Shown: positions 2,141-48,987, numbered from the stretch's first letter. The stretch is DNA of 64,000 bases from Candidatus Sumerlaeales bacterium (GCA_038243585.1 JBBSQY010000015.1:1-64000), one strand, 5' to 3'. Made by a program: numbers and translations. The notes: generated by a model from the letters alone, not told the origin.

Positions 2141-3564
2141 ATGTTTCAATATTCTTTAGCTGCGCTTACCCTGGCTTTTTTTGGCATTGCCATGCCCGTA
2201 AGTGCTACGGCCCCGCCGCACCAGGTTGCAACGGTGGTCATTCATGGATTTAGTCCCAGCGGTTCTGTGACCTCCGGAGTTTTTGGCAGTGACAAAGACG
2301 GTGGTTACATGGCTGACATCGCAGAAACCCTGCGCCTGCCGACCGGCGATGCTTTTCCGATGGCTCCGAATCAACTGGCTTACACGACCTATTACGGCGA
2401 CCAATACCCGTCTTACTATACCCAACGCGACATTGCTGATCTTGAGAGCATTGAGGTACGTGAAGGGACCGGGGTTCCGGTTTATGCCGCCATAGTGGCG
2501 AAATATGCCAAAGAGGTAATGCGCCGCAGCGGTGCATCTCAGGTTAACCTGTTAAGCGTAGCTTTGGTGGACTTATCGGGCGCTATATTATTGAAAAAGA
2601 TGTGGAGGCGCTGGCGAGTTCCGGCAAGATCGCTCGATGGGTTTGCGTCGATGGAGTGGTAGCGGGCAATTTCGCTGCGACTTATGGTGGTGCCCTTGCC
2701 GAGAATTTCTTTAACGTGTACTTCGCCGGAAAATCCATAGATTATGCACAGATGAATTACGAGTGGGTACGTACGCGACTTCATGATCCGAGGGACAGTT
2801 CCAATTCCAGTTTTTATGGAGATTTTCCAACTCATTTCTGGCTGGCAGCGGATGACAACGCTTACGCAAAATTCGTAACGAATTTCAGCAAAAGAGCCAA
2901 TGATGGGGTAGTGCTTGTTGAGGATGGCATACTTAGGAATCTGCCACCCGAGTCGCGTTACCTTGGCCTCTCCCCCACGCGCAGCGTCATTCATGCAACT
3001 CATGAAGGCACAAAAACAAACACTGGAATTCAGGCAGGCCTGGCGGCTGGACTTACCGGACGCAAACGTGTAAAGATCACTCTGGAAACGGTGCGGGTCC
3101 TGACGGAGTTTGATGGCGGAGACAGAGGCGACGGAGAATACGTTTTCGGGGTGAAAGTCTTTTCTCCCACCGCCCAGACGGCTTACAGTATCACTCAGCC
3201 AATCCATGAACTGCGAGCGGAGGATAACAGCTTCCCGTTCTTTACCATGGCAAGGGAAGCGATCTACACGGTTAACGAGGTGTGGTTCGACGACATGATT
3301 CTGGACGGGGAAACGCAGCTGCGTCTGGAGACCAATGTGGATGAAGTCGATGGTAGCGCAATCTATCAGATCACTGAAGACAGCGGTGAAGTGTTACAAT
3401 CTCTTGCCGACACAACAATAACCGTCAGCACAACAGCCGCACAGTCGTATCTGCTGGAGACGGCTGACTGGCAGGCGATCATTCGTGTGGATACGGTGGA
3501 TTACCCTGACTTCCAGGAGATCGTTCGGCAAAACGCCGCCGCGAATTGGGCGCTGTACGAGTAA
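2141..3564 (+). pseudogene. Secreted alpha/beta-hydrolase (lipase/esterase-like) split by a 1-nt frameshift near 2558-2561; true pseudogene or sequence error
   Basis: ORFs 2141..2662 and 2602..3564 join as VNLLSV-SFGGLIGRYIIEKDVEAL with a -1 shift, restoring a nucleophile elbow. VIHGF oxyanion motif and signal peptide upstream. Confidence 0.7.
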
Positions 3565-3570
3565 GTCCGG

Positions 3571-3613
3571 CAGGTGAAGACTTTGCGGAACCGCAAGGAA
3601 AGTAAAGACCTGG
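3571..3613. terminator. Hairpin between convergent genes, possible terminator
   Basis: CTTTGCGG/CCGCAAGG inverted repeat (3581-3598) inside an outer CAGGT...ACCTG pairing; no clear U-tract. Confidence 0.3.
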
Positions 3614-3623
3614 CGCGTGTGCC

Positions 3624-5183
3624 CTAGTTTCGTGTCCAGGTTTCCAAACGAATTTTGTCGGGAAGGATCTTTTCGCCGCTGAACTGCGCTTTGAGTTTTT
3701 GCGCGGCAGGGTCTTCTTTAAGATAGGGAATGGAACCTGTGCGGGTCCAGGAGCCGGGGGGATCGGTCGCGGCAGGGTCGTTTACGGCGGCGGATGGCGG
3801 CCACTCCGGTGCGCGGCTGTGACGAATTATAATTAGTTGGTTCACGGAAGTCATTGCGGCGGGCTGCTTAGGCTGAAGGAGAATGTCGTTTGTTCCCCGC
3901 GTGGCAATCCGCTGTTCCAGATCATACCGTATCATAGCCATGGATTTAAACGGCAGATAAACGGCATCTGCTCCGATGTTTTTATCTGCAACGTTCATGG
4001 ATGCCGCGGCTATTTCGTCTGCCGGTACCTCGTATGCCCAGTTAGTGGTCTGCCGGAATGCGAGCATGGACAGAAGACCGGCCACATGCGCAGTTATGAC
4101 TGCGATGAGGATTGACCTGCGATAGCGGAATTTACTGGCTGGAATAACCACAAGCAGAGTCAGCCAGGCGAACCCGCAAAGAGCAACACGAGGCGGCAAA
4201 AAGCTATACATGGGACCGGGGAGAAACAGGACGCCAACCATGACGCCTGCGAGGAGCATCAATATGCTGAGCATGGTCAGGTGGAGGTATACTTCGCGGC
4301 TGGGTTCCGTGGCGGACTTTCTGGAAAACAGCCCGGCTAATGCAGCTGAGGCGGCGAGAACTAAAAGCATCGGTGCCATGATGAGTCCAGCAACGGACCA
4401 GGGCGGCAGACCATCGGAAACCGCGAGCGTCCATGCAAGAAAGCCGGCGTTTTTAATGAGGCGCATAGGCGTGACTATGGCCGCGCCATCCCACCGGCTT
4501 GGCAGATCGGTGGTTAGCTGAGACAGCAAAATTGGCAACCACAAGACCAGGAAAAGAAGCCCGGGCAGTGCGAGCGCGGCCAAGTTTTTCCACTGCCTGC
4601 GGGAAATGAGCGTCAGTGTGAAAGGGATGAGTCCAGCGACGGCTACCAGCGCAGCGGCATAGTTGGTGAGGAAAAGTGTGGCTCCGAGCAGACCAACCAC
4701 CGCGCAGTTTCTCGGACAGGGTTTTCGAGTAGCCGCGCCTAAAGCCCAAAAACAGCAGGCCCATAGAAACGTAACTAGGGCGTAGTACCGGCCAAAATAA
4801 CCGCAAAATACAAGAAATGGCGATGAGGCGATGGCTAGAGCCGTCAGGCGGGACGGGTATGCTTGCAGCCACGTTTTGAGCGCGCACAGAAACACGAAAA
4901 CAGACGCTCCCATAAGACAAGATGAAAGAATGCGCAATCCATACAGGGAATCTCCTGCCACGTTAAACCAACCCCACGCGAGCAGGAAATAAAGCGGAGG
5001 ATGAACGTCCTGTAGCAGCATTTTAAAGAGGTATGGGAGGGTCGATCCTGCGAAGTAAAACGTTGACGCTTCGTCGTGAAAGATGGGGCGGATTAACGCC
5101 AGCAGAAAGCACAACCACGCGGTTATCCCTCCAGCAATAATGGCCGGGCTAAAGGTCAGCATACTCTTATGCAGTTTTGTCAT
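3624..5183 (-). CDS. GT-C fold membrane glycosyltransferase (GT39/ArnT/PMT-like)
   Basis: Many TM segments; HDE acidic pair after TM1 and a DVHPPLYF motif. Confidence 0.7.
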   Translation of the reverse strand: MTKLHKSMLTFSPAIIAGGITAWLCFLLALIRPIFHDEASTFYFAGSTLPYLFKMLLQDVHPPLYFLLAWGWFNVAGDSLYGLRILSSCLMGASVFVFLCALKTWLQAYPSRLTALAIASSPFLVFCGYFGRYYALVTFLWACCFWALGAATRKPCPRNCAVVGLLGATLFLTNYAAALVAVAGLIPFTLTLISRRQWKNLAALALPGLLFLVLWLPILLSQLTTDLPSRWDGAAIVTPMRLIKNAGFLAWTLAVSDGLPPWSVAGLIMAPMLLVLAASAALAGLFSRKSATEPSREVYLHLTMLSILMLLAGVMVGVLFLPGPMYSFLPPRVALCGFAWLTLLVVIPASKFRYRRSILIAVITAHVAGLLSMLAFRQTTNWAYEVPADEIAAASMNVADKNIGADAVYLPFKSMAMIRYDLEQRIATRGTNDILLQPKQPAAMTSVNQLIIIRHSRAPEWPPSAAVNDPAATDPPGSWTRTGSIPYLKEDPAAQKLKAQFSGEKILPDKIRLETWTRN

Positions 5184-5280
5184 GCCTCAACTGATGGTGA
5201 TTCAGGTTGCCCGGTAAAGAAGTATCCGCGGTCGTATTGCCTAATGTTTACACAGGCAATACGACCACGGAACTTTAGGG

Positions 5281-6738
5281 TTACAGCGTGGGCTTTTCCT
5301 TGTGCCATTCCGTAGACTGTTCGAAGGCGTGGGCGACGGTGAAGAGGCGACCATCTTCAAACGCGGGGGCAATGAATTGCAGACCGATGGGCAGTTTGCC
5401 TGCGGTGAGTCCGCAGGGGATGGATATGGCTGGAACTCCCGCAAGATTTACGCTGATCGTATAGATGTCGCTCAGGTACATCTCGACAGGATTGGACGTT
5501 TTTTCGCCGAAGCGGAAAGCGGCTGTGGGCGTTGTCGGCCCGGCGATTATGTCGCATTTCTCAAAAGCTTTATCGAAATCTGATTTGATCAGGGTACGCA
5601 CTTTGAGAGCCTTGAGGTAAAAATCCTCGTAGAATCCGGCGCTCAGGGCGTAGGTGCCCAGCATGATTCGGCGCTTTACTTCCGCTCCGAAACCCTGGCT
5701 GCGGGTGCGGCTGAACATATCGATTACGTTGTCTGCCTCGGCGCGAAAGCCGTAATGCGCACCATCGTAACGGGCGAGGTTGCTGCTGGCTTCGGCGGTG
5801 GCGCACAGGTAATAGGTGGCTACCGCGTATTTACTGTGGGGAAGGTCAACTTCCACGGTTTCGGCGCCGAGGGATTCCAGTTGGCGAATTGCTGCCTGAA
5901 CGCTGTCGCGCACATCGGCGTCCGCGCCCTCACCGAAAAATTCTTTCGGAAGGCCCACGCGTAGGCCCTTGATGTCACGACCGATGAAGCTGGTGTAATC
6001 GGGAATTTCGACGTTAGCGCTGGTAGAGTCCATCTTATCATGGCCGGCCATGGCGTTGAGAAAAAAAGCAGCGTCTTCGACGTCGCGGGTTAGTGGCCCG
6101 ATCTGATCAAGGCTGGAAGCGAAGGCGACAAGGCCATACCGGGAAACCAGACCGTAGGTGGGTTTCATGCCGACCACGCCGCACAGGGCCGCGGGCTGGC
6201 GAATAGAGCCGCCGGTATCGCTTCCGGTGGCCATCACGCACATATCCGCTGCGACCGCCGCCGCGCTGCCGCCGCTGCTGCCGCCGGGGATGCGTTCCAG
6301 ATCCCAGGGGTTTGCAGTTTTCTTCATGCTGCTGTTTTCGGTGCTGGATCCCATGGCGAACTCGTCCATGTTGGCCTTGCCTACAAACACTGCCCCTTCG
6401 CCGCGGAGGCGCGCGACCACTGTGCCGTCATAAGGCGGGATGAACTTTGAAAGAATTTGAGAAGAACACGTGGTGCGGGTTCCATTGGTACACATATTGT
6501 CTTTGATGGCGAGGGGAATGCCTGTGAGCGGCAACACATTATCGCCGGAGGCAAGGCGGGTGTCCGCTGCTTCGGCCATGCGGAGAGCGTCGCTTTCCAT
6601 CACCGTCACATAGGCACCCACGCGATCTTCAACCTGGGCGATGCGGGCGAGCACGCTTTTGGTAATTTCGACACTGGAGACTTCCCGTTTGTTGAGCATG
6701 TCGCGCAGTTCATGAGCAGTTTTGGAGCAGAGTTCCAT
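5281..6738 (-). CDS. gatA: Asp/Glu-tRNA amidotransferase subunit A
   Basis: Amidase signature [45 protein letters not shown]. Confidence 0.97.
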
Positions 6739-6870
6739 GGTTCCCTATCTTTATGTTACAAATGACAAATTCGTGGTGCGCTTCGCGTGAAAACTAAGTT
6801 GGCCATACCTGATCCGGGATTATTAGAAAGGTTAAACTCTCTGAAAATCCCGCAGCATATGGCTTATGAC

Positions 6871-6891
6871 TTCGTAATTCGTAATTCGTGA
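6871..6891. repeat. Heptamer tandem repeat (TTCGTAA)x3, last copy imperfect
   Basis: ttcgtaa ttcgtaa ttcgtga just downstream of the fmt stop. Confidence 0.5.
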
Positions 6892-6897
6892 TTTTCT

Positions 6898-7920
6898 TCA
6901 CTTAATCTCCCGCGTCCCTTCGAGAAAGGCCGGATCGCTGATGAACAGGTTGCCGGATCTTACCAGTTTCCCGTTGATGGCGTCGGTTGCCTGCATGGGC
7001 TTTTTATCGGGGGGCTGTACCGCGGTTATCAGCAGGTAGCCGTCTCCCACTTTTATTACGAAACCCCTGCCTTTAATAAGCGTTATCACCTGCCCAAACT
7101 CAACATCGTCTGAACGGCCACCGTCTATTTCCATGGAAGCGGTCAACAGACCGTCGGGGTCTTCGTAGTATTCCGCACTGATAATCTTCCATGCGCGCCC
7201 GTGGAGAAAGCTGAACGCGCCCGGCCATGGCTGGAGGCCCTTGATGCGAAAAATGAGGGCGTCACGTTCCATGCTCCAGTCCAGTAGGCCGTCCTGTTTG
7301 GTCATGAGGGGGGCGTAGGTGGCTTCGGCGTCATTCTGGGGGGTGCTTATAATCTGCCCCTCGGCCTCTATCTTATCCAGCACGTTCAAAAGAACTTCTC
7401 CGCCGGTGACGCTGAGGAGGTTGCTAAGGCTCGCGGTGTCGTCGTCGGGGAAGATCTCCACCTGCTCGAAAGCGATAATATTGCCAGTGTCCAGCCCCTC
7501 GTTCATCTGCATTATAGTGACGCCGGTGTAGCGTTCTCCATCAATGACGGCCCGCTGAATGGGGGCCGCGCCGCGGTATTTTGGCAGGATGGAGGCGTGA
7601 AGATTAATGCAGCCAAAGCGGGGCAGGTTCAGGATTTCCGCTGGCAGAATCCGACCGTAGGCAGCCACGACTATGATATCAGGACTATACATGGACAACA
7701 TCTTGTCGAAACCGGCACCTTTAATTTTTTCCGGTTGCAACACAATCAGGTTGTGTTCCAGCGCGAGCTCTTTAACGGGCGGATGCTGGGTCCTCTGACC
7801 GCGACCAACGGGACGATCAGGTTGGGTAACGACTGCGGATATGGTATGTTTTCCAGATTCAATGAGGCGCTTGAGCGGCGGTACCGCAAAACCGGGGGTG
7901 CCCATGTAGATGATATTCAA
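6898..7920 (-). CDS. fmt: Methionyl-tRNA formyltransferase
   Basis: YMGTPGFA, VVTQPDRP, INLHASILPKYRGAAPIQ and LDTG motifs. Confidence 0.96.
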   Translation of the reverse strand: MNIIYMGTPGFAVPPLKRLIESGKHTISAVVTQPDRPVGRGQRTQHPPVKELALEHNLIVLQPEKIKGAGFDKMLSMYSPDIIVVAAYGRILPAEILNLPRFGCINLHASILPKYRGAAPIQRAVIDGERYTGVTIMQMNEGLDTGNIIAFEQVEIFPDDDTASLSNLLSVTGGEVLLNVLDKIEAEGQIISTPQNDAEATYAPLMTKQDGLLDWSMERDALIFRIKGLQPWPGAFSFLHGRAWKIISAEYYEDPDGLLTASMEIDGGRSDDVEFGQVITLIKGRGFVIKVGDGYLLITAVQPPDKKPMQATDAINGKLVRSGNLFISDPAFLEGTREIK

Positions 7921-8109
7921 AACAGTAAAACCGCCTTTCGTGCCGACGCATGCCCCGTCTCTGCCTATTAAAAACGCGAGGATTCCTTGCAGGTCGACAT
8001 TTTGCTACACCATATACGGGTCTGGAGTCACATTTGCCGTTTTGATGTGTAAAAAAGCCAGGCGTATACGGGCGCACCTGACGGAAAGCTCCGGGAGAGT
8101 TTAGTTTAT

Positions 8110-9570
8110 ATGAAAAAGAAAATACTGTTTGTTTCCAGCGAAGTCGCTCCGTTTGCAAAGACGGGGGGCCTGGCGGATGTGGCGGGGGCGCTGCCCATGG
8201 CGCTGGAAAACCTGGGGATGGATGTTCGGGTGGCGATGCCGGGACACGCAGCTAATCACTACGGAAAAGAAACTCCCGTGCCGGTGTTGCCTCGCTTGCA
8301 CGTTCAGGTAGGTTCCCGAACTCATGCGACCAGCGTTTCTTCAGTGACAATGCCTCACTCCGGCGTGCCGGTTTATTTTATCAATAATCCGGAGTTTTTT
8401 GATCGCCCGGGGCTGTATCAGGAGGGAGGCTTGGATTATCCCGACAACGCAGAACGCTTTGCTTTCTTCTGCAAAGCTGTGATCTGGATGGTCAAGGGTC
8501 TGAACTGGATTCCGGATGTCATTCATTGCAACGACTGGCAGACCGGTCTGCTGCCGGTGATGCTCAAAACGGACGCAGACATGCTCCGTGATCCTGAGTT
8601 GCAGTCCATCAGGACGGTTTTGACGATTCATAACCTGGCTTATCAGGGGCTGTTTCCGCCGGCGGCCATGGCCGCCATTGGGCTATCACCTACGCTTTTT
8701 CATCCTGGTGCGATGGAATTTTATGGGTCGGTTAATCTGTTAAAGGGAGGTCTGCTTACTGCCGACACGTTGACGACGGTCAGCCCCACCTATGCCCGAG
8801 AAATCCAGACTAAGGAATTTGGGGCGGGTCTGGAGGGCGTATTGCGCGACAGAGCAGCCGACCTGCACGGGATACTCAACGGTATCGACTACGGACAGTG
8901 GAATCCGGAGACGGACACCTATCTGGAAGCTGGTTACAGTCCCGAGGATTTATCCGGGAAGACAAAATGTAAAACCAACCTTCAAACTGAGCTGGGGCTG
9001 AAGCCTGAACCGCGAACGCCGCTGATGGTGATGATCTCGCGCCTGGATCCGCAAAAGGGGCTGGATATCCTGTTGCCGCTGCTGCCCGAACTGATGAAAC
9101 GGGACGTTCAAGTGGCCGTCCTGGGAACGGGGCTGCCGGAGTATCACGAGGCCCTAACGGCGGCGGCCCAGGCGCATCCCGGACAGATGGCGGTCGTTTT
9201 AAAATTCGATAACGGTCTGGCCCACCGCATGGAGGCTGGTGGAGATCTATTCCTGATGCCGTCGCGCTTTGAACCTTGCGGGCTGAACCAGCTCTACTCC
9301 CTGCGGTATGGAACGCTGCCGGTGGTTCGCCGAACGGGCGGCCTGGCGGACTCGGTGGAGCAGGTTTCGGATAACGGCCAGAGCGGGACAGGCTTTGTAT
9401 TCGACAAGTACACTGGCGCAGCATTGCTAACAGCGATAGATGAGGCCCTTCAAATGTTTAAGAAGGTGCCGACGTGGGAATCAACTCAACGGCGAGCAAT
9501 GGCGAAGGACTTTAGCTGGACGGCGTCTGCGAAGTTGTACGCGGACCTTTATGAGACTTTGCTACCGTAG
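8110..9570 (+). CDS. glgA: Glycogen synthase
   Basis: KTGGLADV, HCNDWQT, TIHNLAYQG, PSRFEPCGLNQL. Confidence 0.96.
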   Translation: MKKKILFVSSEVAPFAKTGGLADVAGALPMALENLGMDVRVAMPGHAANHYGKETPVPVLPRLHVQVGSRTHATSVSSVTMPHSGVPVYFINNPEFFDRPGLYQEGGLDYPDNAERFAFFCKAVIWMVKGLNWIPDVIHCNDWQTGLLPVMLKTDADMLRDPELQSIRTVLTIHNLAYQGLFPPAAMAAIGLSPTLFHPGAMEFYGSVNLLKGGLLTADTLTTVSPTYAREIQTKEFGAGLEGVLRDRAADLHGILNGIDYGQWNPETDTYLEAGYSPEDLSGKTKCKTNLQTELGLKPEPRTPLMVMISRLDPQKGLDILLPLLPELMKRDVQVAVLGTGLPEYHEALTAAAQAHPGQMAVVLKFDNGLAHRMEAGGDLFLMPSRFEPCGLNQLYSLRYGTLPVVRRTGGLADSVEQVSDNGQSGTGFVFDKYTGAALLTAIDEALQMFKKVPTWESTQRRAMAKDFSWTASAKLYADLYETLLP

Positions 9571-9690
9571 CCGCTCTGGGAAGTTTAATATTAGTGCTGT
9601 TAATGAGCGCTCAACTATAAGGTTAAACCCGGAAACGGGTGAATGCGTGTGAGACATATTAATTTGCGATCAAGGTATCCGCTGCGCCGC

Positions 9691-9707
9691 AACTTTAGAT
9701 TAAAGTT
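9691..9707. promoter_or_regulatory. AT-rich 7-3-7 inverted repeat, possible operator
   Basis: AACTTTA-GAT-TAAAGTT about 65 nt upstream of the radical SAM gene. Confidence 0.3.
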
Positions 9708-9770
9708 CGGGAAGCCCCTTATGAATGTTTGTAATTTGCGCATCTAAACTACTGCCTGGGGGGACTGTAC

Positions 9771-10769
9771 TTGACAGAATTTTATTTTAACATTGATGTG
9801 CTGGGCATCGGCGCGTGCAATCTGTCCTGTCCATCCTGTCCTGTGGGAAACTCTCGCGAGGTGAAGAACCCGAAGGGGTTGATGGAGCGGGAGCTTCTGG
9901 ATCGCATCCTGACTAAAGGTCAGGGCGAGTGCGAACTCGTTGGCGTCGGTTTATATAACTGGACCGAGCCGCTGCTCCACCCTCGTCTCGATGAACTTGT
10001 TGGGGTTGTGCATGCTCACGGACTACCTTGTGATCTAAGTTCAAATCTGAACAATATGCGGGAAGTTGAGAAGGTGTTGCGGCAGAATCCTCGCTCGCTA
10101 AGAATTTCGAATTCCGGATTTACCCAGGAGCTTTACGGGGTGTCTCATCGTGGCGGAAACATTGAAACGGTGAAACAGAACATGAAGGAACTTCTTAAGC
10201 TTAAGAACGAAATGGGCAGTACCACACTGATCGAACTGCATTATCACCGCTACAGAGACAACCTGGGCGACGAGATGTTAATGCGGGAGTATTGTGCAGA
10301 GCTGGGCATTGGCCTGGTGCCGGTTTTGGCTTTTTTTACGCCCGTGGAGAAAGTGGTAGCTTACCTGGAGAATGACCCTTCCCTTGCTACCGTAACCGAT
10401 GCGGATCGTGACATTATGGGAAAACTGCTTCTTCCACTGGAGCAGGCCATGGAAATTGTAAAGCCTTATGCAGGAAAGGCCTGCCTGCTGCAGGAGGCAC
10501 AAATTACGATCGATTTTCGTGGTGCTGTGCAACTCTGCTGCGCGACGTACGATTCAAATGCCTATACGTTGTGTGATTATCTGACTACTCCGCTGGCAGA
10601 CATTCAGGGTATGAAGTATGAGAGCAGCATGTGTACCAAGTGTCTGAGCCATGGAATTCACGTATATTACACCGCCGGCACGGGCGACCTGAACAAGGCC
10701 GCGGCCGAGAGGGCTCCGGAAGAGCATCGTCAAATGATGTTAAACCTACCATCATACGTGACCGCGTAG
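9771..10769 (+). CDS. Radical SAM protein with C-terminal Cys-rich (twitch/SPASM-like) region
   Basis: CNLSCPSC (CxxxCxxC), YNWTEPLLHP, then C..CC..CxxC near the C-terminus; TTG start after GGGGGA. Confidence 0.85.
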   Translation: MTEFYFNIDVLGIGACNLSCPSCPVGNSREVKNPKGLMERELLDRILTKGQGECELVGVGLYNWTEPLLHPRLDELVGVVHAHGLPCDLSSNLNNMREVEKVLRQNPRSLRISNSGFTQELYGVSHRGGNIETVKQNMKELLKLKNEMGSTTLIELHYHRYRDNLGDEMLMREYCAELGIGLVPVLAFFTPVEKVVAYLENDPSLATVTDADRDIMGKLLLPLEQAMEIVKPYAGKACLLQEAQITIDFRGAVQLCCATYDSNAYTLCDYLTTPLADIQGMKYESSMCTKCLSHGIHVYYTAGTGDLNKAAAERAPEEHRQMMLNLPSYVTA

Positions 10770-10953
10770 CCTGTAACAAAATCGACCGAAAACTTCGAGT
10801 GGAACTTAAATCCCCTATCCGTGAGATTCACATATTAAGGTCGTCCCAAAACTGGAAATAGTTCATTGTAGAGCGTGATTCCCACGGGTACTCCCCTGAA
10901 TTATTCCGCATAACTTCCTTGAATTAGCCGAAACGGCATTTTACCTTTTTGCA

Positions 10954-12381
10954 ATGCTTTTTGATAGTCTCCAATTTGTCATATTTTTTATAATTGTCTA
11001 TGGCGTCTACCTGTGCCTCAGGCATCGTGGGCAGAACATCTTCCTGCTTTTGGCCAGTTATATCTTTTACGGGTTCTGGAGCTGGAAGTTTTTAGCATTG
11101 CTCGTGGCCACGCAGGTTATTGATTATCACATTAGCCGTGGCCTGGTGCGCTTGGAAGACCCAGGCAGGCGGCGTAAGCTGATGTGGCTGAGCGTAGCTG
11201 TGAACATGGGCACGCTCGGATTTTTCAAGTATTTCAACTTTTTTACTGAAAACCTACAGGGTAGTCTGAACCTGTTGGGTTTGCCAGTTTCCGATGTAAC
11301 GTTATCTGTTGTGCTTCCGGTGGGAATCTCATTCTACACGATCCAGGAGATGACCTACATCATAGACGTTTACAGGCGGCGGGTAAAACCCGCTGACAAG
11401 TTTATTGATTTCGCCCTGTTCGTATCGTTTTTTCCGCAGCTTGTAGCCGGCCCCATCGAACGGGCGGAACGTCTGCTGCCGCAAGTTCAGTCGCCTCGGA
11501 AAATCCATCGAGTAGATCTCATCGAAGGCGGTTGGCTAATCTTCTGGGGTCTGTTCAAAAAGGTCTTTATCGCCGATCGAATTGCCATGCTGTCTGACAC
11601 CGTATTTTCCGCGCCGGAGGCCGCAGCAGGACCAATGGTTCTTTTAGGAGCCCTTGCCTTTACCATTCAGATATACGCGGATTTCTCTGGTTACTCGGAT
11701 ATGGCGGTAGGACTTGGCAGGCTGATGGGCTTTCACCTTATGTATAATTTCAAACTGCCCTTTTTCGCTACTTCGCCGTCAGATTTCTGGCGGAGATGGC
11801 ACATAAGCCTGTCACAGTGTCTTCGGGACAATTTATACATCCCCCTTGGCGGAAACCGGTTCGGCTTTCCGAGGGAGGCATTGGCCTTAATGGTGACAAT
11901 GCTTATCGGGGGCTTATGGCACGGTGCCCAATGGCATTTCGTGCTGTGGGGGGCTTATTGTGGGGGGTTGCTCGTGCTGGAACGAGTATGGCGACGCAGC
12001 AGATGGGGGAACATACTGGTTCGCCCCGGACATTCCGCGTCCTCCATTTCTCAGGCTGCGCATATCGCTGTCATGTTTCCGCTAACCATAATTGGCTTCC
12101 TCATTTTCCGGGCCGAAAATTTGACCGACATTAAGCTGCTTTTGGGCAATATTTCGGTGGGGTGGAGCAATGCGGTTGTATATGTGCCCCAAGTGAAGGA
12201 ATTGCTCATCTGCACGTGGCTGCTGGCAGCTTACCAGTTGGCACACCATGTATCCGATGATCGATTTATCCTCTTCCGAATGCCATGGCCTCTCCGAACG
12301 GCCCTGTATGTGGCCATGTATTTACTGATATCTCTGGGAGCACCGCATGACGCGCGAACTTTCATCTACTTTCAGTTCTGA
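10954..12381 (+). CDS. MBOAT O-acyltransferase, AlgI/PatA family
   Basis: LPVGISFY, FPQLVAGPIER, DFSGYSDMA, FWRRWHISLS, GLWHGA (catalytic His), C-terminal FIYFQF. Confidence 0.93.
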   Translation: MLFDSLQFVIFFIIVYGVYLCLRHRGQNIFLLLASYIFYGFWSWKFLALLVATQVIDYHISRGLVRLEDPGRRRKLMWLSVAVNMGTLGFFKYFNFFTENLQGSLNLLGLPVSDVTLSVVLPVGISFYTIQEMTYIIDVYRRRVKPADKFIDFALFVSFFPQLVAGPIERAERLLPQVQSPRKIHRVDLIEGGWLIFWGLFKKVFIADRIAMLSDTVFSAPEAAAGPMVLLGALAFTIQIYADFSGYSDMAVGLGRLMGFHLMYNFKLPFFATSPSDFWRRWHISLSQCLRDNLYIPLGGNRFGFPREALALMVTMLIGGLWHGAQWHFVLWGAYCGGLLVLERVWRRSRWGNILVRPGHSASSISQAAHIAVMFPLTIIGFLIFRAENLTDIKLLLGNISVGWSNAVVYVPQVKELLICTWLLAAYQLAHHVSDDRFILFRMPWPLRTALYVAMYLLISLGAPHDARTFIYFQF

Positions 12382-13842: not shown

Positions 13843-15879
13843 TCAGTAGTCGTAGCCGCCATCGTCGATGGCAGGATATTCGTACACTTCGATAGCTGAA
13901 AGACGAGCTTCCGAACGGTTCTGCTGTGCGAAAGGTGTCAAGGTATTACCGAAGATTGTCGCCTGTGTTGGAACCTGGATAAGGTCCAAACCAAGAGCTA
14001 CATCTTTGGCTGAAGGGCCAGGCTGACCTGGACCAGGATTTACACCCAGGGTAAAGAAGCCACCACCGCCAAAGGTATCGAACTCTTCGTAGTCCTGACG
14101 GATTCCGTTAGGATCAAGCGGAGACGAAACCATGACTGAGTACCAGCCACCTTTTTCACCGGCCGTATCAAGCGTCGGGTCGGTCTCAGGGTTCTGAGAG
14201 TCCGAGCTAGGGATAGCCTGGATTGCAAGTGCTTCTGCTTCAGGAGATCCGGCATTAGCCTGCGCTGCACCAACAATTTCAAGCAGGTAGTTAACAGTTC
14301 CTGCTACAGTCTGGAACCGGAAACGCAATCCAGATTGAATTTCCACCGCAGTGTTTCTGGCGGAAGGAACTGACGACGTAGCATAGAACTTAGCACGATA
14401 CAGCTTGCTTGGCTCGATGCGCAGTCTATCTACAGGGCTGAACGACTCAAAAGTAATCAAGCCGATACCGAACTTATCCTGAGGAACTGGATCAGTGGTG
14501 CCGAAGATACCCGCAGTTCCCTGATTCACGATGCTTGCATAAGGTGCAACATCACGACCTGGAATCTGAAGGGCCTGACGGCGACCTGGCTCCAGGTTGT
14601 TCTCGGCGTTAAACGCGCCAGGAACAAGGTTCTTATTACCAGCGGCTCCAGCGTTAAGACCTGTCGCACGATTGTATTCGAAGACGAGGTTTCCATCGCT
14701 GTCATCCTTGGCATCGTAAGTTCCCAGAACAACTTCTTCCAAGGTCAGAGTACCATTGGCTGGATCAGGAGTCGCGAACGATTCCATGAGCGCACCAATT
14801 CTTGTTCCGGCTGCTGCTGGAACGTCGATTGGATCAAAGTCGACCTTGTACAGTGAAGGAATTCCAATCTGGTCCGTTGGGCGGACGAAGAAGGAGGTCT
14901 CTTCTTTCTGTGGGAAGTTCGACGTTGCATACCCAGGCTCAGCCGGTGTCCCGGTTACGCCTGTTTGACCATATTCAAAATGCACGGCAGCGTCAATCGT
15001 CTCATTGGTTATACGAAGACGGAAACCAGGCACTTCATTAATTGGTGTGAAGATTCCATTGGTAGTGTGAATGTAGAACTTACCATGAACCATCTTAGAA
15101 GGTCCAACTTCGTCGTACGACATCATCGACTCATTCTTCCAGCCGAAAATGCGCGTACGTCCCTGGGCGGCGTTGACAGTAACTGTCAGCTTACCAGGGA
15201 GCTTCTGACCTGAAACATCAGCTGCAGGGATACCAGAGGTTGACCACGATGTACCGAAGTCCGTATCGCGAACGATTTCAGTGTAACCGTCGGTATCGGC
15301 AAACAGCATGTCATCTTCATTGTCAACGCTTGTGATAATCGCTTCAGTGAATGATACATTACCTTCTGGATCTGCTACGTAGTAACGAACCACTTTACCA
15401 GCTGCAGCTGCGATGTTCTGCGCAGCAGATGGCGCAGCAAAAGGAGCTGTTCCGGCTTCAGGTGACAAGATGATGTCTCTGAAACTGGCGCTATCTACAG
15501 TGTTGATAGCGTTTGCCGGAAGTTTAGCCTTTGGATTGCCGGCTAGCTCTTCAGCAGCAATTTCGGCCTCACCATTGCTGGTAGGACCTTGACCGTTGAT
15601 CGTGTACTGGTTCGGACCGAGGCCTTCACCAGTAGTATTGTATTCTGCGAACGTCCACGTGAGCTGTGAATCAGGCGAGTCCGCATCCATTACGTAATCA
15701 CTGAAGTTGAACGCATCAGAGAATACGAAAAAGTTGTTATCGGTCGCGGATGAAGCTTCCAAATCGCCGACCTGTACGTCGGGCAATCCAGAAATCACAG
15801 GCGCCGCTGCAAATGCAGGTGCAAACGCGCTAAGCGTAATGACACCGGCAAAGAGGGTTGATTTGAACCCTTTACTCAT
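13843..15879 (-). CDS. Secreted acidic Cys-free protein, probable S-layer or major surface protein
   Basis: Signal peptide (AFA/AAP), no Cys, rich in Ala/Gly/Thr/Asp, GGAGGT RBS, monocistronic with a strong terminator, internal duplication. The CDS is clear; the function is inferred. Confidence 0.6.
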   Translation of the reverse strand: MSKGFKSTLFAGVITLSAFAPAFAAAPVISGLPDVQVGDLEASSATDNNFFVFSDAFNFSDYVMDADSPDSQLTWTFAEYNTTGEGLGPNQYTINGQGPTSNGEAEIAAEELAGNPKAKLPANAINTVDSASFRDIILSPEAGTAPFAAPSAAQNIAAAAGKVVRYYVADPEGNVSFTEAIITSVDNEDDMLFADTDGYTEIVRDTDFGTSWSTSGIPAADVSGQKLPGKLTVTVNAAQGRTRIFGWKNESMMSYDEVGPSKMVHGKFYIHTTNGIFTPINEVPGFRLRITNETIDAAVHFEYGQTGVTGTPAEPGYATSNFPQKEETSFFVRPTDQIGIPSLYKVDFDPIDVPAAAGTRIGALMESFATPDPANGTLTLEEVVLGTYDAKDDSDGNLVFEYNRATGLNAGAAGNKNLVPGAFNAENNLEPGRRQALQIPGRDVAPYASIVNQGTAGIFGTTDPVPQDKFGIGLITFESFSPVDRLRIEPSKLYRAKFYATSSVPSARNTAVEIQSGLRFRFQTVAGTVNYLLEIVGAAQANAGSPEAEALAIQAIPSSDSQNPETDPTLDTAGEKGGWYSVMVSSPLDPNGIRQDYEEFDTFGGGGFFTLGVNPGPGQPGPSAKDVALGLDLIQVPTQATIFGNTLTPFAQQNRSEARLSAIEVYEYPAIDDGGYDY

Positions 15880-16431
15880 AAAACTACCTCCAAAAAATAA
15901 CTAAGAATTACATACGTCTGCAGGCGTGCCTGACAGACCTTCCGCATAAATATAATGATGCTTGTTGCATTGCCGTCTACAAGATCTATTACTTGATTCG
16001 GACAGTCTAGTGATCCTGCATACCAACTATATTGCGCTATTTAATACACGTCTCACTTTTTTGCTGTACGAACAGTTAAATTTCCTGTTTCAGGCTCAAC
16101 CGTCCCACCGATCGGTGGTACGACTAGATAAAATGGTCTACTCGGCACTATATATTCTTTGTCCAGCCGAGAAAAAACGGTTGTATTTTTAATCGCCTGT
16201 CACCTGACACACAAGACGCCTGCAAACGAAGCTCAGAAAAAGGATTCCCTTGACTGGCTTTTGGTATCACGGCGTCTGACACCCTATGAAATATAACAAA
16301 TGCAGCGAATCGTCCGAGGCGGCTACTAAACGATATCGCGGTTCCCAGCCTTGGCTAATATTAAAGTATTACGGTGGGCGCGACCTGACAGGCGAAAATG
16401 CTGTAATATTTACAGCTACCAAATCATCGGC

Positions 16432-17994
16432 ATGGGCGATTTGTTGAAGTCGAGTTTTCCTTTTTTCATAGGCAGATGGGTAATTGTGGCTCTGATGGCC
16501 TGCGCTGGATCGTCCCTGTTTCTGCTGTGCATACCAGCGATATGGACTCCCCATGACCTGAGTCATCCCGAGAGCATTGTGCCGTGGGCAGTGCGTGAAA
16601 TCGCGGCTAACAAACCGCTATATGCCGACTGGCGCCAATGGCCACACCGGTTCATGCCATACGGGCCACTCCTGTGTTACCCGGCCGGGCTGATATTTCG
16701 GGCACTTCATATGGAGGAATTTGGATTTCACCTGTACCTGGCGGGCCGCATTCAAAGCCTCGTCTATATGGTGGGGGTTGGCGCGCTCCTGGCCAACATG
16801 CTCCGTATCGCAGGGATTCGATTCGGGTGGGGCCTGCTTTATAGTTTTGCGATATTGGCTTTGTGGCCGGGAATTTTTCTGCCAGGGATGAGCTTTCGCG
16901 CCGACCTGCCGGCGCTTTTTTGGGTGCTGGCTGCGGCTACGCTGGCCTTTCAATTTCCTGCAAACAGAAACAGACTAGCTGTGGCGCTGGCCATGTTCAT
17001 GATTTCCCTCGCTTACAGGCCCGCGCTGTGGTCGTTTCCTGCCGCTTTTGCGCTTTTCGCCTTTTGGCGAACAGGAATCATCCCTGCAGTCAGGTGGTGC
17101 GTTGCTGTTGTGGTTGCAGCCGGGGCGTATATTGTTGTAGGTAATTTTCTAACAGATGGACGCTTTTTATTAAATCAGGCCGGCGCCTCGTCCATTGGTT
17201 TCACTGCGGACACTTACAGGCTGGCGTTTGTCCTCTTAACTGGTCCGCAGGAGTTTCCGATATTCACATGGGATATTGTGGGGCGGCTGCTTACCGCAGC
17301 GATTGCCAGTATGATTCTTTTGAAGAAATCTAAATCCCATTTTGACCATGGTTTATCCATTTACTTTTTAACGGCTTTATTTGTAAATCTGTTAACAATG
17401 TTTAAAGTGGGGTCTGCTTTTAACTATATTGTTGAGGCGTATGTGCTCAGCGCAGTGGTGCTAGCCATTGGGGCCTTGCGCTTAAAAGAGAACTGGGCGT
17501 CCGTGGGAAAGGTTTTTCGGGCTGGGTCTCTTGCGACAGGAGCATTGATGTTCGTCGTGCCGATGCTCTGGTTTACAATTATAAATGTTTCCACTGTGCC
17601 TCAGGTCTACCAGATAGCAACAAATCCTTCTCCTTTAAAACCCTTGTTAAACTTGCCGGGATCGGCGCTGCTTGGCGATCTGGCGTTCGTGCATCCATCG
17701 GAACCGGCTCACGCGTTGTCTGACCCGGTACCTTATGTGCAACTGACTGGACAAGGGAAAATCTCCCGGGAACCGCTTACTTCCCGCTTAAAAGCGCGGG
17801 CTTTTAGCCATGTCGTTCTAAGCCCCGGAACTAAATATTTATTTTTTGCTCCCGACAGGGCTTTGTGGGCGGGAAAGGCGTTGGAGGCCTATTATACTCA
17901 ACAGGTAGTGGCACCCGGATATGAAATATGGGTGCCGTCCAACGGGGAAACATCCGCGCCTGCGGAGGTCTTGCCCCCGCACTTATCCGAATAG
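16432..17994 (+). CDS. Polytopic membrane protein, GT-C-like glycosyltransferase
   Basis: About 11-12 TM segments, YGPL and RAD motifs, C-terminal soluble domain. Start uncertain (frame open from 16351). Confidence 0.55.
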   Translation: MGDLLKSSFPFFIGRWVIVALMACAGSSLFLLCIPAIWTPHDLSHPESIVPWAVREIAANKPLYADWRQWPHRFMPYGPLLCYPAGLIFRALHMEEFGFHLYLAGRIQSLVYMVGVGALLANMLRIAGIRFGWGLLYSFAILALWPGIFLPGMSFRADLPALFWVLAAATLAFQFPANRNRLAVALAMFMISLAYRPALWSFPAAFALFAFWRTGIIPAVRWCVAVVVAAGAYIVVGNFLTDGRFLLNQAGASSIGFTADTYRLAFVLLTGPQEFPIFTWDIVGRLLTAAIASMILLKKSKSHFDHGLSIYFLTALFVNLLTMFKVGSAFNYIVEAYVLSAVVLAIGALRLKENWASVGKVFRAGSLATGALMFVVPMLWFTIINVSTVPQVYQIATNPSPLKPLLNLPGSALLGDLAFVHPSEPAHALSDPVPYVQLTGQGKISREPLTSRLKARAFSHVVLSPGTKYLFFAPDRALWAGKALEAYYTQQVVAPGYEIWVPSNGETSAPAEVLPPHLSE

Positions 17995-18016
17995 TTTCCA
18001 ATTGGGCGTGCAGTAT

Positions 18017-18034
18017 AAGGCACGGCGCGTGCTT
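18017..18034 (+). promoter_or_regulatory. Putative sigma-54 promoter of ftsH
   Basis: AAGGCACGGCGCGTGCTT with GG-N10-GC spacing; predicted start site near 18044, just before the AAGGAG RBS at 18055. Confidence 0.4.
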
Positions 18035-18071
18035 CCAATATTTACGCTGGCCGCAAGGAGTATTTCCACGA

Positions 18072-20015
<1,944 letters not shown>

Positions 20016-20024
20016 ACAAAGTGT

Positions 20025-20061
20025 AATGCCGGCGCGATTTATATCGCGCCGGCATTTTTTT
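20025..20061 (+). terminator. Rho-independent terminator after ftsH
   Basis: 14-bp stem AATGCCGGCGCGAT/ATCGCGCCGGCATT followed by a T-run. Confidence 0.9.
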
Positions 20062-20096
20062 AACCTAAATCCCGTGCTTATACATGTTAGGCGTTT

Positions 20097-23000
20097 TTGA
20101 TATATAATGATGAACTACATGCCTTGATGATTTTTCGCTCGTCGAAAGAAACTTGCATTCCGACTCTCCCCGCCAGGACCTCCAAATTGAATCTACTTAG
20201 ATCTGCACTCTTTTCGATTTCCCTGTGTTTATCCAGCGCTTCCATTTGCGCGCAGGTGTCGCCTCCGGAATTTATTAACTTTGGCTATGTGCAGAACAAC
20301 GCTGTGCTGCCCTATATCCAATATAGCGCCTTGACTCATATTGCGCCGCCATTTGTGAATTTCGATACAAACGGCAATCTCATCTCGCCCAGTAACTTCA
20401 CGACTGGACGAAACGCAGATTTAAAAGCTAATGGCGCCGCTCAACGGGCGGGTACAAAAGTGATCGCTTGTGTTCGGAATAATGGTTTTTCGGACAGCAT
20501 ACTTGCCAGCGTAATGCAGGATCCTGCTAAACGGACGGCATTAGTTAACGGAGTACGGAATTTGGTGCTCAACGACCCATACTGCCAAGGGGTTAATTTT
20601 GATTTTGAAACCTCTTGGGACACAACCACCCGGGACGGTATTACGCTTTTCTTACAAGCGATACGGGCGGCAATACCACCGCCATACGAAGTAAGCGTAT
20701 ACACTCACCCCACATTCCGTGCATCTTACTGGGATGTCAGCGGCATCGTAAACAGCATCGACTATATGCTCTATAGCACGTATGACTTCGGAACCTCTCG
20801 TGCTCATGCGAACGCGGATTTTGACGCTGCTCTTAAGCAGATTGCCGGTTATCTTGACGCCGGCCTTCCACCGGAAAAGATGGTGCTAACATGGGTATCC
20901 TACGGACGGCGTTGGTTTAACACGGAAACCAGCGGGTACGATGTGACCGGGTTCAAGCAATCCCAGGGATTTTTTGACACTATGTATGACACTACGTTGC
21001 GGCAGGCTAATGGTGGCCCGTTTACGCCGACATATCTTCGTGGCGACGAAATTTCCTACCACACTTATCAGCAGGGAGAAATGAAGTTTACTGCCGTGGG
21101 TGAGACCCCGGAATCCCTTGAGTATAAGATTACATCCGCATTAAATTTTCCAGGGTACAATGGTGCGTATAAGGGTGTCCGTTTTCGCGGGGTTGGGTGG
21201 TGGTCTCTCATGTGGGCAGGTAAATATTTCAGGGACTTTCAATATTCCACTGACCCTAATATTTCTCCGCCAGCTTCGGATTTTAGTTCGTATGACCCGA
21301 TTACCGGGTCGGTTGTACCTCGATCACCCTACTATCGACACATTGACCTTCTGGTCCAGGAAATATTAAAAAAGCCGGGTCAAACACAATTTGATTTGGA
21401 AAGTTTTGAAAACGCAAACCCCCACTGGCGCGACCCTAATGAGTCGCCGGATACGTCAGGAGACACGGACAAAGATTCCAAATTTGAGTGGTTGACCGCA
21501 CCAAATGCTTCAGGCCGTCCGGCAGGAACGACCATAGCCGGGCGTTTGTATTTTGACTTTGAGAGCACGTCAGGAAACAAAGTGTTTCTTCGGCATGAGA
21601 TGCTTAATAATCGCACAGAAACAAATGTCGTCGATACTAACGCAGCGTTGGCACTCGTCAGCAGAAACACCCGTGTCCGTGGACACTACTATGTATCAGG
21701 CAACTATTCCGCTAGAAAATTACGGTTAGCGCTTGTTGATGGGCTTCGTCAGGTGGAGGTTTCTGATCCTGTTACCCTGCCAGCCAACCCAGGTTGGAAC
21801 ACCTTTCAGTGGGACATTAACGATCCCTCACAAATCAACGCCTGGACCACCAGCGAGCCCTCATTGTTAAGCGGCAACGGAGTTGTCGATAACAAGGTGT
21901 CAGGCACTCCAGAATCCAGGGACATAAGCTTTCTCGGGTTTATTGTAGAGGGAGGCGGGGCCGGTTCGGGAACCATTTATTTTGACAGCTTGACGTATGA
22001 GGCCGTCGCTCCCCCATCTTCAAACACCAAACCCTATGTTATCAATGAGTTCCGCTACAGCAATTCGGCCTCTGAGTTTGTTGAAATTTCGGGGCCGCCG
22101 GGGCCATTTCCGGCCGGCATGCAATTGTTATCCTACAAGGCGTCAGACGGGTCGGTATACAAATCGACTTCCCTTGCCAGCCAATCCATCCCTGCGTCGG
22201 GCTATTTTATCGTTGGTGACGTGGGAGTGTCGGGCGCATCCGGAAATACCGGATTTACTCCGGTCAACTGGGGGGCGGGAACTGCAGATCTTCCGAACAC
22301 CACTCCAGGATCCCTACAACTCTACAATGCTATCACAGGTTACGCATACGACTCCGCCGTGTATGGCGCCTTTGGCGGTGTTGGAGATCTTTCACGCATA
22401 CAAACTCGACGCGTCACCGGAGAAGGCTATGGCTGGATGGGCAATGTGGGTCCCGGTCTTTCTGGGGACGGGCAGCCTTACACCATGGGCCGCATGCCCG
22501 ACGGTGCCGACACCAACGTGAATCAACGAGACTTCTCGTTTATGCCGCCCACGCCGGGACAGCCAAACGGGGCCTCAGGAATTATCGACACCCTGCTGGA
22601 CTTTTCTACTACCCCGTTGTCGGCTTTCCAAACCTATCAAAATCTGAAGTTTGTCACCCCCGCTTCAGGTGGGATACCTCCTTCGCCGGGAGGCGGAATT
22701 GTTTACCGTTGCGTTGATACTTCAGGCGGCGGTGTTGTTGGCGTTTTTGGCGACGCCCAAATGGGAGCCGAAGACGGGCTGCAGGTGACAGGTCAGCTTT
22801 ATATCCCGGCCATGGACCATCCGGCTCAGGCGGTGGCAGTGGGCTTTTGTGGAACGCAGGGCAGCTCATTTTTTGCTGATACGCCAGATAGTACTGGCTA
22901 CGACAACGGCTACTGGCTTGTCTATGAAAATGGCGTAATCAACCTCGCGGATGGACAGCCGTCACACCCCCAACAATTTCAGCTTATTGCGGCGAGCAAT

Positions 23001-23324
23001 GATAATCAGGACTCGTTAATTTCCATCGGAACTGGGACAAAAAGCCTGGCCGAGGTCTCAGCCGTTGCAAACAGCTGGGTCAACTTTCGGATGCAGGTCG
23101 ATCCTGCGGCGGTTGCAGGTCAGCAGATCATTATGCAGATAAACGATGTCGACGTATATCGCGGATCTATTCCTGCCGGCGCACCCGTTACGGGCGCTGT
23201 AATGGTTGGCCACCGGGAAGCAGGCGGCGGAGTTCAGGCAATGGAGGGTACGTGGGTTGATAATTTACTAATTTCACGTGCAACCCGTCCCGCCTCAGTT
23301 GCCGATTTTGGACTCTACGAGTAG
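20097..23324 (+). CDS. Large secreted GH18-family glycoside hydrolase with lamin-tail-like and beta-sandwich domains
   Basis: LTHI, GVNFDFE catalytic motif, YDF, GLPPEKMVL, GVGWWSL; YVINEFRY..SEFVEI lamin-tail-like motif; signal peptide ending ICA/Q. True start probably somewhat downstream. Confidence 0.75.
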   Translation: MIYNDELHALMIFRSSKETCIPTLPARTSKLNLLRSALFSISLCLSSASICAQVSPPEFINFGYVQNNAVLPYIQYSALTHIAPPFVNFDTNGNLISPSNFTTGRNADLKANGAAQRAGTKVIACVRNNGFSDSILASVMQDPAKRTALVNGVRNLVLNDPYCQGVNFDFETSWDTTTRDGITLFLQAIRAAIPPPYEVSVYTHPTFRASYWDVSGIVNSIDYMLYSTYDFGTSRAHANADFDAALKQIAGYLDAGLPPEKMVLTWVSYGRRWFNTETSGYDVTGFKQSQGFFDTMYDTTLRQANGGPFTPTYLRGDEISYHTYQQGEMKFTAVGETPESLEYKITSALNFPGYNGAYKGVRFRGVGWWSLMWAGKYFRDFQYSTDPNISPPASDFSSYDPITGSVVPRSPYYRHIDLLVQEILKKPGQTQFDLESFENANPHWRDPNESPDTSGDTDKDSKFEWLTAPNASGRPAGTTIAGRLYFDFESTSGNKVFLRHEMLNNRTETNVVDTNAALALVSRNTRVRGHYYVSGNYSARKLRLALVDGLRQVEVSDPVTLPANPGWNTFQWDINDPSQINAWTTSEPSLLSGNGVVDNKVSGTPESRDISFLGFIVEGGGAGSGTIYFDSLTYEAVAPPSSNTKPYVINEFRYSNSASEFVEISGPPGPFPAGMQLLSYKASDGSVYKSTSLASQSIPASGYFIVGDVGVSGASGNTGFTPVNWGAGTADLPNTTPGSLQLYNAITGYAYDSAVYGAFGGVGDLSRIQTRRVTGEGYGWMGNVGPGLSGDGQPYTMGRMPDGADTNVNQRDFSFMPPTPGQPNGASGIIDTLLDFSTTPLSAFQTYQNLKFVTPASGGIPPSPGGGIVYRCVDTSGGGVVGVFGDAQMGAEDGLQVTGQLYIPAMDHPAQAVAVGFCGTQGSSFFADTPDSTGYDNGYWLVYENGVINLADGQPSHPQQFQLIAASNDNQDSLISIGTGTKSLAEVSAVANSWVNFRMQVDPAAVAGQQIIMQINDVDVYRGSIPAGAPVTGAVMVGHREAGGGVQAMEGTWVDNLLISRATRPASVADFGLYE

Positions 23325-48971: not shown

Positions 48972-48987
48972 TTACTGAAAAGACGTT

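Follow-up and report, generated by a model that had tools for sequence, protein, structure and literature searches.

We have analysed a stretch of DNA of 64,000 nucleotides (hereafter the window) from a Candidatus Sumerlaeales bacterium (GCA_038243585.1, JBBSQY010000015.1:1-64000), which is contig C15 of a 3.43-Mb assembly (G000) of 99 contigs and 52.5% G+C. Two proteins encoded in it, one lipase-like and one with a GH18 domain, finish in a similar short peptide, and we have found that this peptide, referred to here as the tag, recurs at the C-terminus of many other proteins of the same genome. The tag is strictly C-terminal and domain-independent, is enriched on exported proteins, is kept in orthologues and occurs in two phyla. 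In our judgement it very likely serves exported proteins as a tag for recognition or sorting. Several sorting machines, among them sortase, exosortase, rhombosortase and the type IX secretion system (T9SS), were discovered by way of short C-terminal tags. As the present one has neither a membrane helix nor a folded domain, it fits none of the known mechanisms.

The abundance of the tag was measured on a gene set of greedily chosen, non-overlapping open reading frames (ORFs) of at least 80 aa, a crude call that gave 2,719 ORFs and covered 90% of the genome (completeness of G000 is 89.7%, and the metagenome-assembled genomes (MAGs) compared in this work are 58-98% complete). The core [DNE]W.[LIVM]Y stands at the protein end, within one residue, in 50 of these ORFs, against 0.1 expected from its internal rate (20 occurrences in 1.03 million residues). 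A position-specific scoring matrix (PSSM) of 14 columns, built from 66 tails, has as its consensus S/A/T at -8, A/S at -7, V at -6 (43/66), D at -4 (43/66), W at -3 (63/66), L at -1 (44/66) and Y at 0. This matrix scores above 7 at 77 of the 2,719 C-termini, which is ∼3% of the proteome. When one random internal position per protein was scored as a control, 1 of 2,460 exceeded 5 and none of the 2,460 exceeded 8; over 981,158 internal positions there were four matches above 12, two of them at a distance of 4 and 6 residues from the C-terminus.

The 77 tails refine the motif to [STA]-[AS]-V-x-[DN]-W-x-[LIV]-[YF], at times plus one residue. Forty-five of them finish W-x-h-Y (h, hydrophobic) and 19 the same plus one residue; F replaces Y in 9 (8 of them with one residue more) and W in 2, the GH18 protein of the window among them, so that W-x-h-[YF] plus one residue, usually E, D, Q or N, closes 27 of the 77. 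The original prediction, drawn from the two tails of the window, was small-small-A-[DN]-[WF]-x-L-Y-E-stop. Its overall shape stands, although W is the rule and F is rare, and the final E, which is present in both window tails, is not obligatory since most tails end at Y. Furthermore, a scan of all C-termini of the genome showed that the motif is not limited to the two proteins from which it had been proposed, as single-linkage BLAST clustering divides the 77 tagged proteins into 53 families.

In the window itself the two tails were confirmed by translation: nucleotides 3472-3567 finish in ...QNAAANWALYE and nucleotides 23232-23327 in ...RPASVADFGLYE, in each case followed by a stop codon. The features concerned are the following, all of them on the plus strand.

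2141..2662, plus strand: 5' piece of the lipase-like gene, 173 aa, bearing the signal peptide, in a reading frame other than that of the 3' piece (ORF).
2602..3564, plus strand: 3' piece of the lipase-like gene, 320 aa, bearing the tag (ORF and translation; covered by the open frames of the orthologues).
3532..3561, plus strand: tag of the lipase-like protein, NAAANWALYE (translation; PSSM score 20.6; TAA stop at 3562-3564).
20097..23324, plus strand: gene of the exported GH18 protein, 1,075 aa as the longest ORF (ORF, translation, Pfam Glyco_hydro_18 at residues 63-296).
22701..23276, plus strand: last folded domain of the GH18 protein, a predicted beta-sandwich after which the tag is appended (AlphaFold2).
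23277..23321, plus strand: flexible C-terminal tail of the GH18 protein, last 15 residues ...SRATRPASVADFGLYE (translation, coil in the AlphaFold2 model; PSSM score 17.4).
23292..23321, plus strand: GH18 tag proper, ASVADFGLYE (translation; TAG stop at 23322-23324).

Only these two of the 49 ORF-set genes of the window score positive (the next best has -9.3), in agreement with the proposal that no cytoplasmic protein of the window ends in this way. Both carriers also have the signal peptide that had been claimed for them. In the GH18 protein it is directly visible in the translation, and translation probably begins at a later codon, just ahead of it; in the lipase-like protein it is provided by the upstream piece. 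The lipase-like gene (2141-3564) is split in the assembly over two overlapping frames, with the change of frame within ∼2560-2660, close to a hydrolase-like S-x-G-G stretch, and this split is either a true frameshift or an assembly error. In eight related genomes the orthologous gene is open over 378-554 aa, mostly over 472-554 aa, and three of the orthologue tails end in ...DDWSLYQ, ...DDWALYQ and ...DDWALH. No Pfam family matched either piece of the gene, and the label lipase-like rests on the judgement made in the original prediction and on the hydrolase-like motif spotted by eye. Orthologues of the GH18 protein were found in 35 of 75 Sumerlaeota genomes, with a tail kept at the same position.

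The tag does not look like part of a domain. When the 77 proteins are aligned over their last 40 residues, they agree in V-x-D-W-x-L-Y alone, with a mean column identity of 16%. The C-terminal 235 residues of the GH18 protein were modelled with AlphaFold2 from an alignment (A1) of 20 orthologues, and the model (mean pLDDT 85.4) is a beta-sandwich with strands at residues 29-220 of the 235. The last strand is GTWVDNLLI, and the 15 residues beyond it are coil, their pLDDT falling from 69 to 52. According to this model, the tag would be a disordered appendage behind the last folded domain. The Pfam domains of the carriers differ and their tails share the motif only, which, together with the modelled coil, is not what would be seen if the motif were the ordinary last strand of a shared domain.

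We also considered that the tails could be the visible part of a stop-codon read-through concealing a transmembrane anchor. Among 66 stops checked after the tag there were 44 TAA, 14 TAG and 8 TGA, and the DNA 3' of the stops differs from gene to gene, some loci having terminator-like stems followed by T runs as judged by eye. The use of all three stops and the unrelated downstream DNA rule this possibility out.

The carriers are diverse, with lengths of 203-2,246 aa (median 563). The Pfam analysis of 75 of them recognised many enzymes (GH43, GHL10, NAGPA, S8 subtilases, M1, M12, M23, trypsin-like, amidase_3, polysaccharide deacetylase, EEP nucleases and GSDH) as well as lamin-tail (LTD) domains, BNR, FG-GAP and Kelch propellers, ice-binding-like and Golvesin_C domains and the Tat-type DUF1501, and it revealed no known sorting domain on any of the 75. 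What nearly all of them have in common is the export signal: a strict signal-peptide heuristic was positive for 56 of the 77 tagged proteins and for 583 of the 2,642 others (Fisher p = 2e-20), which bears out the claim that the tag goes with exported and not with cytoplasmic proteins. By eye, a signal peptide is present in about 70 of the 77. In 14 of the 21 proteins missed by the heuristic, inspection showed a Sec or Tat signal but an ORF start set too far ahead of it; 3 are cut by a contig end, 2 come from split genes whose first piece encodes the signal, and 2 have none. The split genes are the lipase-like gene of the window and C2:47191-48813 / 48561-50681; in the latter, the ORF with the signal peptide (C2:47191-48813) overlaps the tagged one (C2:48561-50681), both belong to one BLAST family, and they are probably one split gene. 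A possible lipobox was seen in only 1 of the 77 proteins, and untagged paralogues with signal peptides occur within tagged families. As the same tag is found on both Sec and Tat cargo, recognition after export is indicated.

The BipA of the window is 88% identical to that of a MAG titled Candidatus Sumerlaeota, with 46-54% identity for the other 79 loci retained in this comparison. The taxonomic distribution was explored at the DNA level by counting D-W-x-h-Y-stop with the pattern GAYTGGNNNNTNTAYTRR and using the reversed pattern as a control; such DNA-pattern counts take in only part of each wording of the tag. There were 32 matches versus 3 for the control in G000, and 28 versus 4 and 20 versus 0 in two congeners. 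Within Sumerlaeota, most of family f1 was clearly enriched and families f9-f13 and f15 moderately, and two genomes of other classes gave 23 versus 1 and 8 versus 0. Families f4 (0 versus 3), f7 (4 versus 7) and f16 (7 versus 7) were at background. Overall, f1, parts of f8, f9-f13, f15, f17 and f18 are counted here as lineages bearing the tag, and f4, f7 and f16 as poor in it. We then applied a stringent 30-base pattern to one genome each of 185,579 species. It gave 43 matches, 21 of them in records labelled Sumerlaeota, BRC1, Sumerlaeales or Sumerlaeaceae, 10 in taxonomically unlabelled bacteria and 12 elsewhere (5 in Flavobacteriaceae and 2 in records titled Omnitrophota). The statement of the original prediction that similar tails occur in Sumerlaeota is thus correct, in view of the enrichment in several families and of the share of the stringent matches.

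The tag is also found outside Sumerlaeota. Five of the non-Sumerlaeota genomes with a stringent match were themselves enriched in D-W-x-h-Y-stop (24 versus 6, 22 versus 1, 31 versus 5, 13 versus 2 and 11 versus 3), and these belong to one second phylum, represented by 35 genomes (one per species) of 4.1-8.4 Mb. In this phylum the motif is present in 34 of the 35 genomes, with a total of 472 matches versus 71 for the control, and one of its members (G077) has 22 tagged genes ending in [ST]-x-V-x-D-W-x-[LI]-Y. Two of the loci assigned to this phylum, L109 and L120 (genomes G078 and G079), are titled Candidatus Omnitrophota and were grouped with MAGs of 6.5-8.4 Mb, so that labels and grouping may disagree there.

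Furthermore, the wording of the tag shifts with lineage. The tails of the GH18 orthologues end in ...SAVEEWELY, ...TAVSSWELY or ...ISDYQLY in the home family, and elsewhere in ...VPVELSGFMVD, ...VPVELDYFSVD, ...VPVEVDAWVVD or ...PQVDIFRVY. Both wordings sit behind the same last strand and, when aligned on the aromatic residue, both have a hydrophobic residue at -3, an acidic one at -1 or -2, a hydrophobic one at +2 and the protein end at +3. The second wording, E-L-x-x-F-x-V-[DE]-stop, has 18, 16, 14, 13, 7 and 4 matches in G013, G046, G037, G038, G034 and G019, with a control of 0 or 1 per genome (0, 0, 0 and 1 in the first four of them), and none in G000. In G046, 15 proteins of 196-1,090 aa, with signal peptides recognised by eye, end in [ST][AS]LPVELDxFxV[ED]; second-wording genes of this genome often adjoin in pairs, as at loci L302, L306 and L311. 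The tag-poor family f16 was sampled through 400 kb of G069, which is 7% of this genome. Of the 306 ORF-set genes in the sample, 50 encode at least 200 aa with a start resembling a signal peptide, and no recurrent tail and so no third wording was seen within it. Judging from two DNA patterns and this one sample, some Sumerlaeota families seem to lack the tag. The distribution in these sequences indicates that the tag is old, patchy inside the phylum and variable in wording, which is how a signal co-evolving with its reader would be expected to behave.

Neither Pfam nor NCBIfam models matched the window tails, the 77 tails or the tag region of the full proteins, and because of this annotation pipelines overlook such signals. 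The objects most similar in kind are the NCBIfam curated models NF053834 (ultrashort_CTERM) and NF050076 (sort_motif_YLP), which describe very short putative sorting motifs of 10-11 positions and differ in that neither matches the tag, a distinction made by profile match only. The former had no match in G000 and the latter one, below the cut-off and at an unrelated frame of 25 aa; both were absent among the matches of the 77 tails, and both also match 10-11 of 14 control genomes, so their specificity in six-frame searches is low. Literature searches retrieved no description of the tag, and we know of no cultured host. In the parts of the main Sumerlaeota genomics paper that were available, chitinases are described only with 'one signal peptide' and a tag is not mentioned (PMC8092238).

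Several known systems share some properties with the tag. The signals for sortase (LPXTG), exosortase (PEP-CTERM), rhombosortase (GlyGly-CTERM) and myxosortase (MYXO-CTERM) are, like it, short lineage-specific C-terminal signatures present on dozens of proteins per genome, with unrelated exported carriers and a wording that is constant inside a lineage. However, these tripartite signals add a transmembrane helix and a basic cluster and are handled by a membrane-embedded processing enzyme, whereas the tagged proteins stop 0-1 residues past the motif (45 and 27 of the 77) or, in two more cases, 4-6 residues past it. The outer-membrane beta-signal and the YxF-type PDZ ligands resemble the tag in that exported proteins finish in aromatic and hydrophobic residues, but the hydrophobic positions of the tag (0, -1, -3 and -6) do not alternate as in a terminal barrel strand, its cargo has soluble enzyme and propeller folds and not beta-barrels, and its second wording ends in an acidic residue. 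The substrates of type II secretion systems (T2SS) have in common with the tagged proteins the Sec or Tat signals, folded periplasmic intermediates (which are proposed for the tag), a majority of hydrolases and a complete T2SS-like gene set in the genome. They differ in having no known linear signal, and T2SS-type secretins are also present in Sumerlaeota families without the tag.

With regard to such machinery, G000 is diderm-like and encodes three secretins, which belong to a PilMNOPQ-type set, to a T2SS-like cluster and to a TPR-secretin of 1,692 aa. The T2SS-like cluster (C45:1-19002, locus L199) is complete, with GspE, two GspF, six prepilin-type N_methyl genes, a secretin of 836 aa, a T2SSM-like protein, a PilM/N fusion and a T2SSK-like protein. 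The TPR-secretin (C32:28556-33631, equivalent to L201:11557-16632) has a long N-terminal TPR region, and there is a PilM/N fusion ∼6 kb away on the same strand. Only one family was a recurrent neighbour of tagged genes, and this is a set of 33 GspG-like pilin paralogues in G000 (for example C33:9825-10439, C11:9209-9871 and C4:19461-20069). Their prepilin methylation domain scores above the cut-off and their GspG-like N-terminus below the equivalog cut-off; the N-terminal helix is near-identical among them, and they have variable inserts and the motifs LTTPIxYL, DPF, SxGPD and YDATNGTxSxGD. Nine of the 33 pilin genes directly adjoin a tagged gene, against a permutation mean of 1.65, and 0 of 2,000 permutations reached 9; in several of these pairs both genes share a strand and are 13-43 bp apart. 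A GspG-like neighbour is also present for 4 of the 22 tagged genes of G077, where ∼5% would be estimated by chance, the family having at least 113 matches in the 7.3 Mb of this genome. Moreover, one member of the pilin family (L179, C47:7635-8516) has an ordinary signal peptide instead of the prepilin leader and helix, followed by a TIG domain and the tag, and judged by its sequence it amounts to a soluble pilin domain. Every one of the 75 Sumerlaeota genomes contains the GspG-like family, with 15 to at least 42 matches each, and five genomes of the second phylum have 76-147.

Co-folding of residues 27-204 of the GspG-like protein L232 (A2) with tails of 40 residues (A3) gave a score of 0.00; this was done without controls and bears neither way. 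The window proteins at 13843 (no Pfam match), 36161 (PD40) and 49439 (LTD) had been suggested as receptors, and we found nothing linking them to the tag.

We propose that the tag is a lineage-specific, unstructured C-terminal address peptide appended to exported, non-lipoprotein enzymes and binding proteins. The carrier would be exported by Sec or Tat to the periplasm and would fold there leaving the tail exposed, and the tail would then be bound by an envelope component co-evolving with it; through this binding the carrier would be taken across the outer membrane or placed on it. The periplasmic reading of the tag, its role in secretion or surface attachment and the identity of the reader are what we infer from the observations above. 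Taken as a whole, the general claim together with a role in envelope sorting seems to us somewhat better supported than its negation. The route that we favour would be a type II secretion-type or GspG-like pseudopilin machinery, which is abundant in these genomes, and this specific assignment is tentative and falls clearly short of an even chance. In its strongest form, the tail would be the first linear and transplantable signal for a type II secretion-type or pseudopilin machine, in two phyla. According to this, a nine-residue peptide, its wording (VxDWxLY or LPVELDxFxVE) co-evolving with the reader, would select folded Sec or Tat enzymes for passage through the secretin or for loading on pilin-like fibres in both of these uncultured phyla, where each genome has 30-150 GspG-like pilin paralogues. 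We consider this last form doubtful.

Several points weigh against this proposal and especially against the favoured route. We found no reader for the tag, and the sorting role has been deduced from sequence. To the best of our knowledge, no linear secretion signal exists for classical T2SS substrates. The pilin adjacency exceeds chance in two of the three genomes and concerns a minority of the tagged genes, and in G046 none of the 18 genes meeting the tail pattern adjoins a pilin gene. Furthermore, the GspG-like family (75 of 75 Sumerlaeota genomes), the T2SS-type secretin (67 of 75) and the TPR-secretin, counted by its N-terminal part (69 of 75), are found with or without the tag, so their presence or absence does not track or account for it. 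The single extra residue, rarely 4-6, that may follow the motif disfavours a strict recognition of the free carboxylate. Finally, no signal peptide was seen in two tagged ORFs, of which C65:12821-13591 encodes a PIG-L protein and the other is C88:2071-3630, and signal peptides in general were judged by a heuristic and by eye on a crude ORF set.

The main rival is pure surface docking. Here export would be independent of the tag, and the tail would afterwards hold the protein non-covalently on a cell-surface receptor, which could be an outer-membrane protein, the S-layer, a glycan or a pilin-like fibre, thereby keeping polymer-degrading enzymes at the cell. The cargo suits this explanation well, as it consists mostly of polymer hydrolases and binding modules that gain by staying on the cell, and so does a tail that is exposed and flexible in the model. 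The untagged paralogues with signal peptides indicate that export as such is independent of the tag, T2SS-type secretins exist in tag-free lineages too, and the pilin-like neighbours in G000 and G077 also fit docking on a fibre. However, no receptor was found, the pilin adjacency is absent in G046, and a peptide of nine residues would be a weak anchor unless the receptor is abundant. The present results fit docking and export alike. We regard docking alone as a real but rather unlikely explanation. A role in processing or quality control is the minor rival and is improbable. The tail would be a C-terminal propeptide or degron for a periplasmic PDZ-type or tail-specific protease or chaperone, either cut off as the protein matures or serving to eliminate proteins whose secretion has failed. 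Hydrophobic or aromatic C-terminal ends are the type of ligand taken by PDZ domains and tail-specific proteases, and the tag has such residues at or beside its free C-terminus, with small residues ([STA]-[AS]) just ahead of the conserved core. The free hydrophobic end of a PDZ-type ligand is offered by the 45 tails that end in Tyr, but the 27 with one more, usually polar, residue and the second wording with its final Glu or Asp would make poor classical hydrophobic-carboxylate ligands. A degron kept over two phyla, on 3% of the proteome and only on proteins of exoenzyme type, is also hard to explain.

The remaining alternatives are much weaker. The original prediction had suggested, as a side possibility, that the tag could be a reduced C-terminal domain (CTD) of T9SS, handled by a T9SS-like translocon. 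The type A CTD (PF18962 / TIGR04183) is indeed a helix-free C-terminal signal on Sec-exported hydrolases and adhesins of diderm bacteria that is read after export, as is proposed for the tag, but it is a folded beta-sandwich of ∼70-100 residues that needs SprA and PorU/PorV, whereas the tag has about nine conserved residues that form a coil in the model. SprA_N (PF14349) had no match in G000, G001, G077 and G078 and two in a Flavobacterium control (G080), an absence that is unproven for G000 given its completeness of 89.7%. Por_Secre_tail (PF18962) had none in G000, G001 and G078, one below the cut-off in G077 and 41 in the Flavobacterium control, and it did not match any of the 75 full-length tagged proteins or the 77 tails. 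Because the control was positive, these negatives make a canonical T9SS unlikely; one Tat-type protein is tagged as well, and the suggestion of a reduced CTD is highly improbable and was abandoned. That the tails have no common function, being chance, the last strand of one shared domain or a read-through extension, has in its favour the shortness of the motif and nothing else that we could see, and its probability is negligible: the excess of terminal cores over expectation, the 53 unrelated families without a shared domain, the coil of the model, the use of three stops ahead of unrelated downstream DNA and the conservation of the tail in orthologues across the phylum all stand against it. 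We thus regard a reduced T9SS CTD, chance and a shared domain as effectively excluded. The original idea of a candidate sorting signal on diverse exported proteins has therefore held up, as the motif is neither confined to two proteins nor equally common on cytoplasmic ones, with the sorting role itself being the part that stays conditional.

If the tag is indeed a sorting signal, the exoproteome of Sumerlaeota (chitinases, xylanase-type enzymes, proteases and nucleases) could be read from sequence, and the comparison of tag-bearing and tag-free families would give a handle on the reader through phylogenetic profiling. A T2SS-like route, if true, would be relevant to the old problem of how secretion systems choose among folded substrates. 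The peptide might also find use as a portable secretion tag. These prospects concern about 3% of a proteome in two uncultured phyla, with a wording that varies by lineage as it does in signals that co-evolve with their reader.

Finally, two minor observations may be added. The five Flavobacteriaceae matches of the stringent pattern (L083, L099, L110, L114 and L115, four of them titled Flavobacterium) may be due to a shared gene with a like ending or to chance. In the C45 cluster, several small genes without Pfam match lie between the recognised ones, for instance at L199:10496-11560, L199:14331-14996 and L199:9059-9595.

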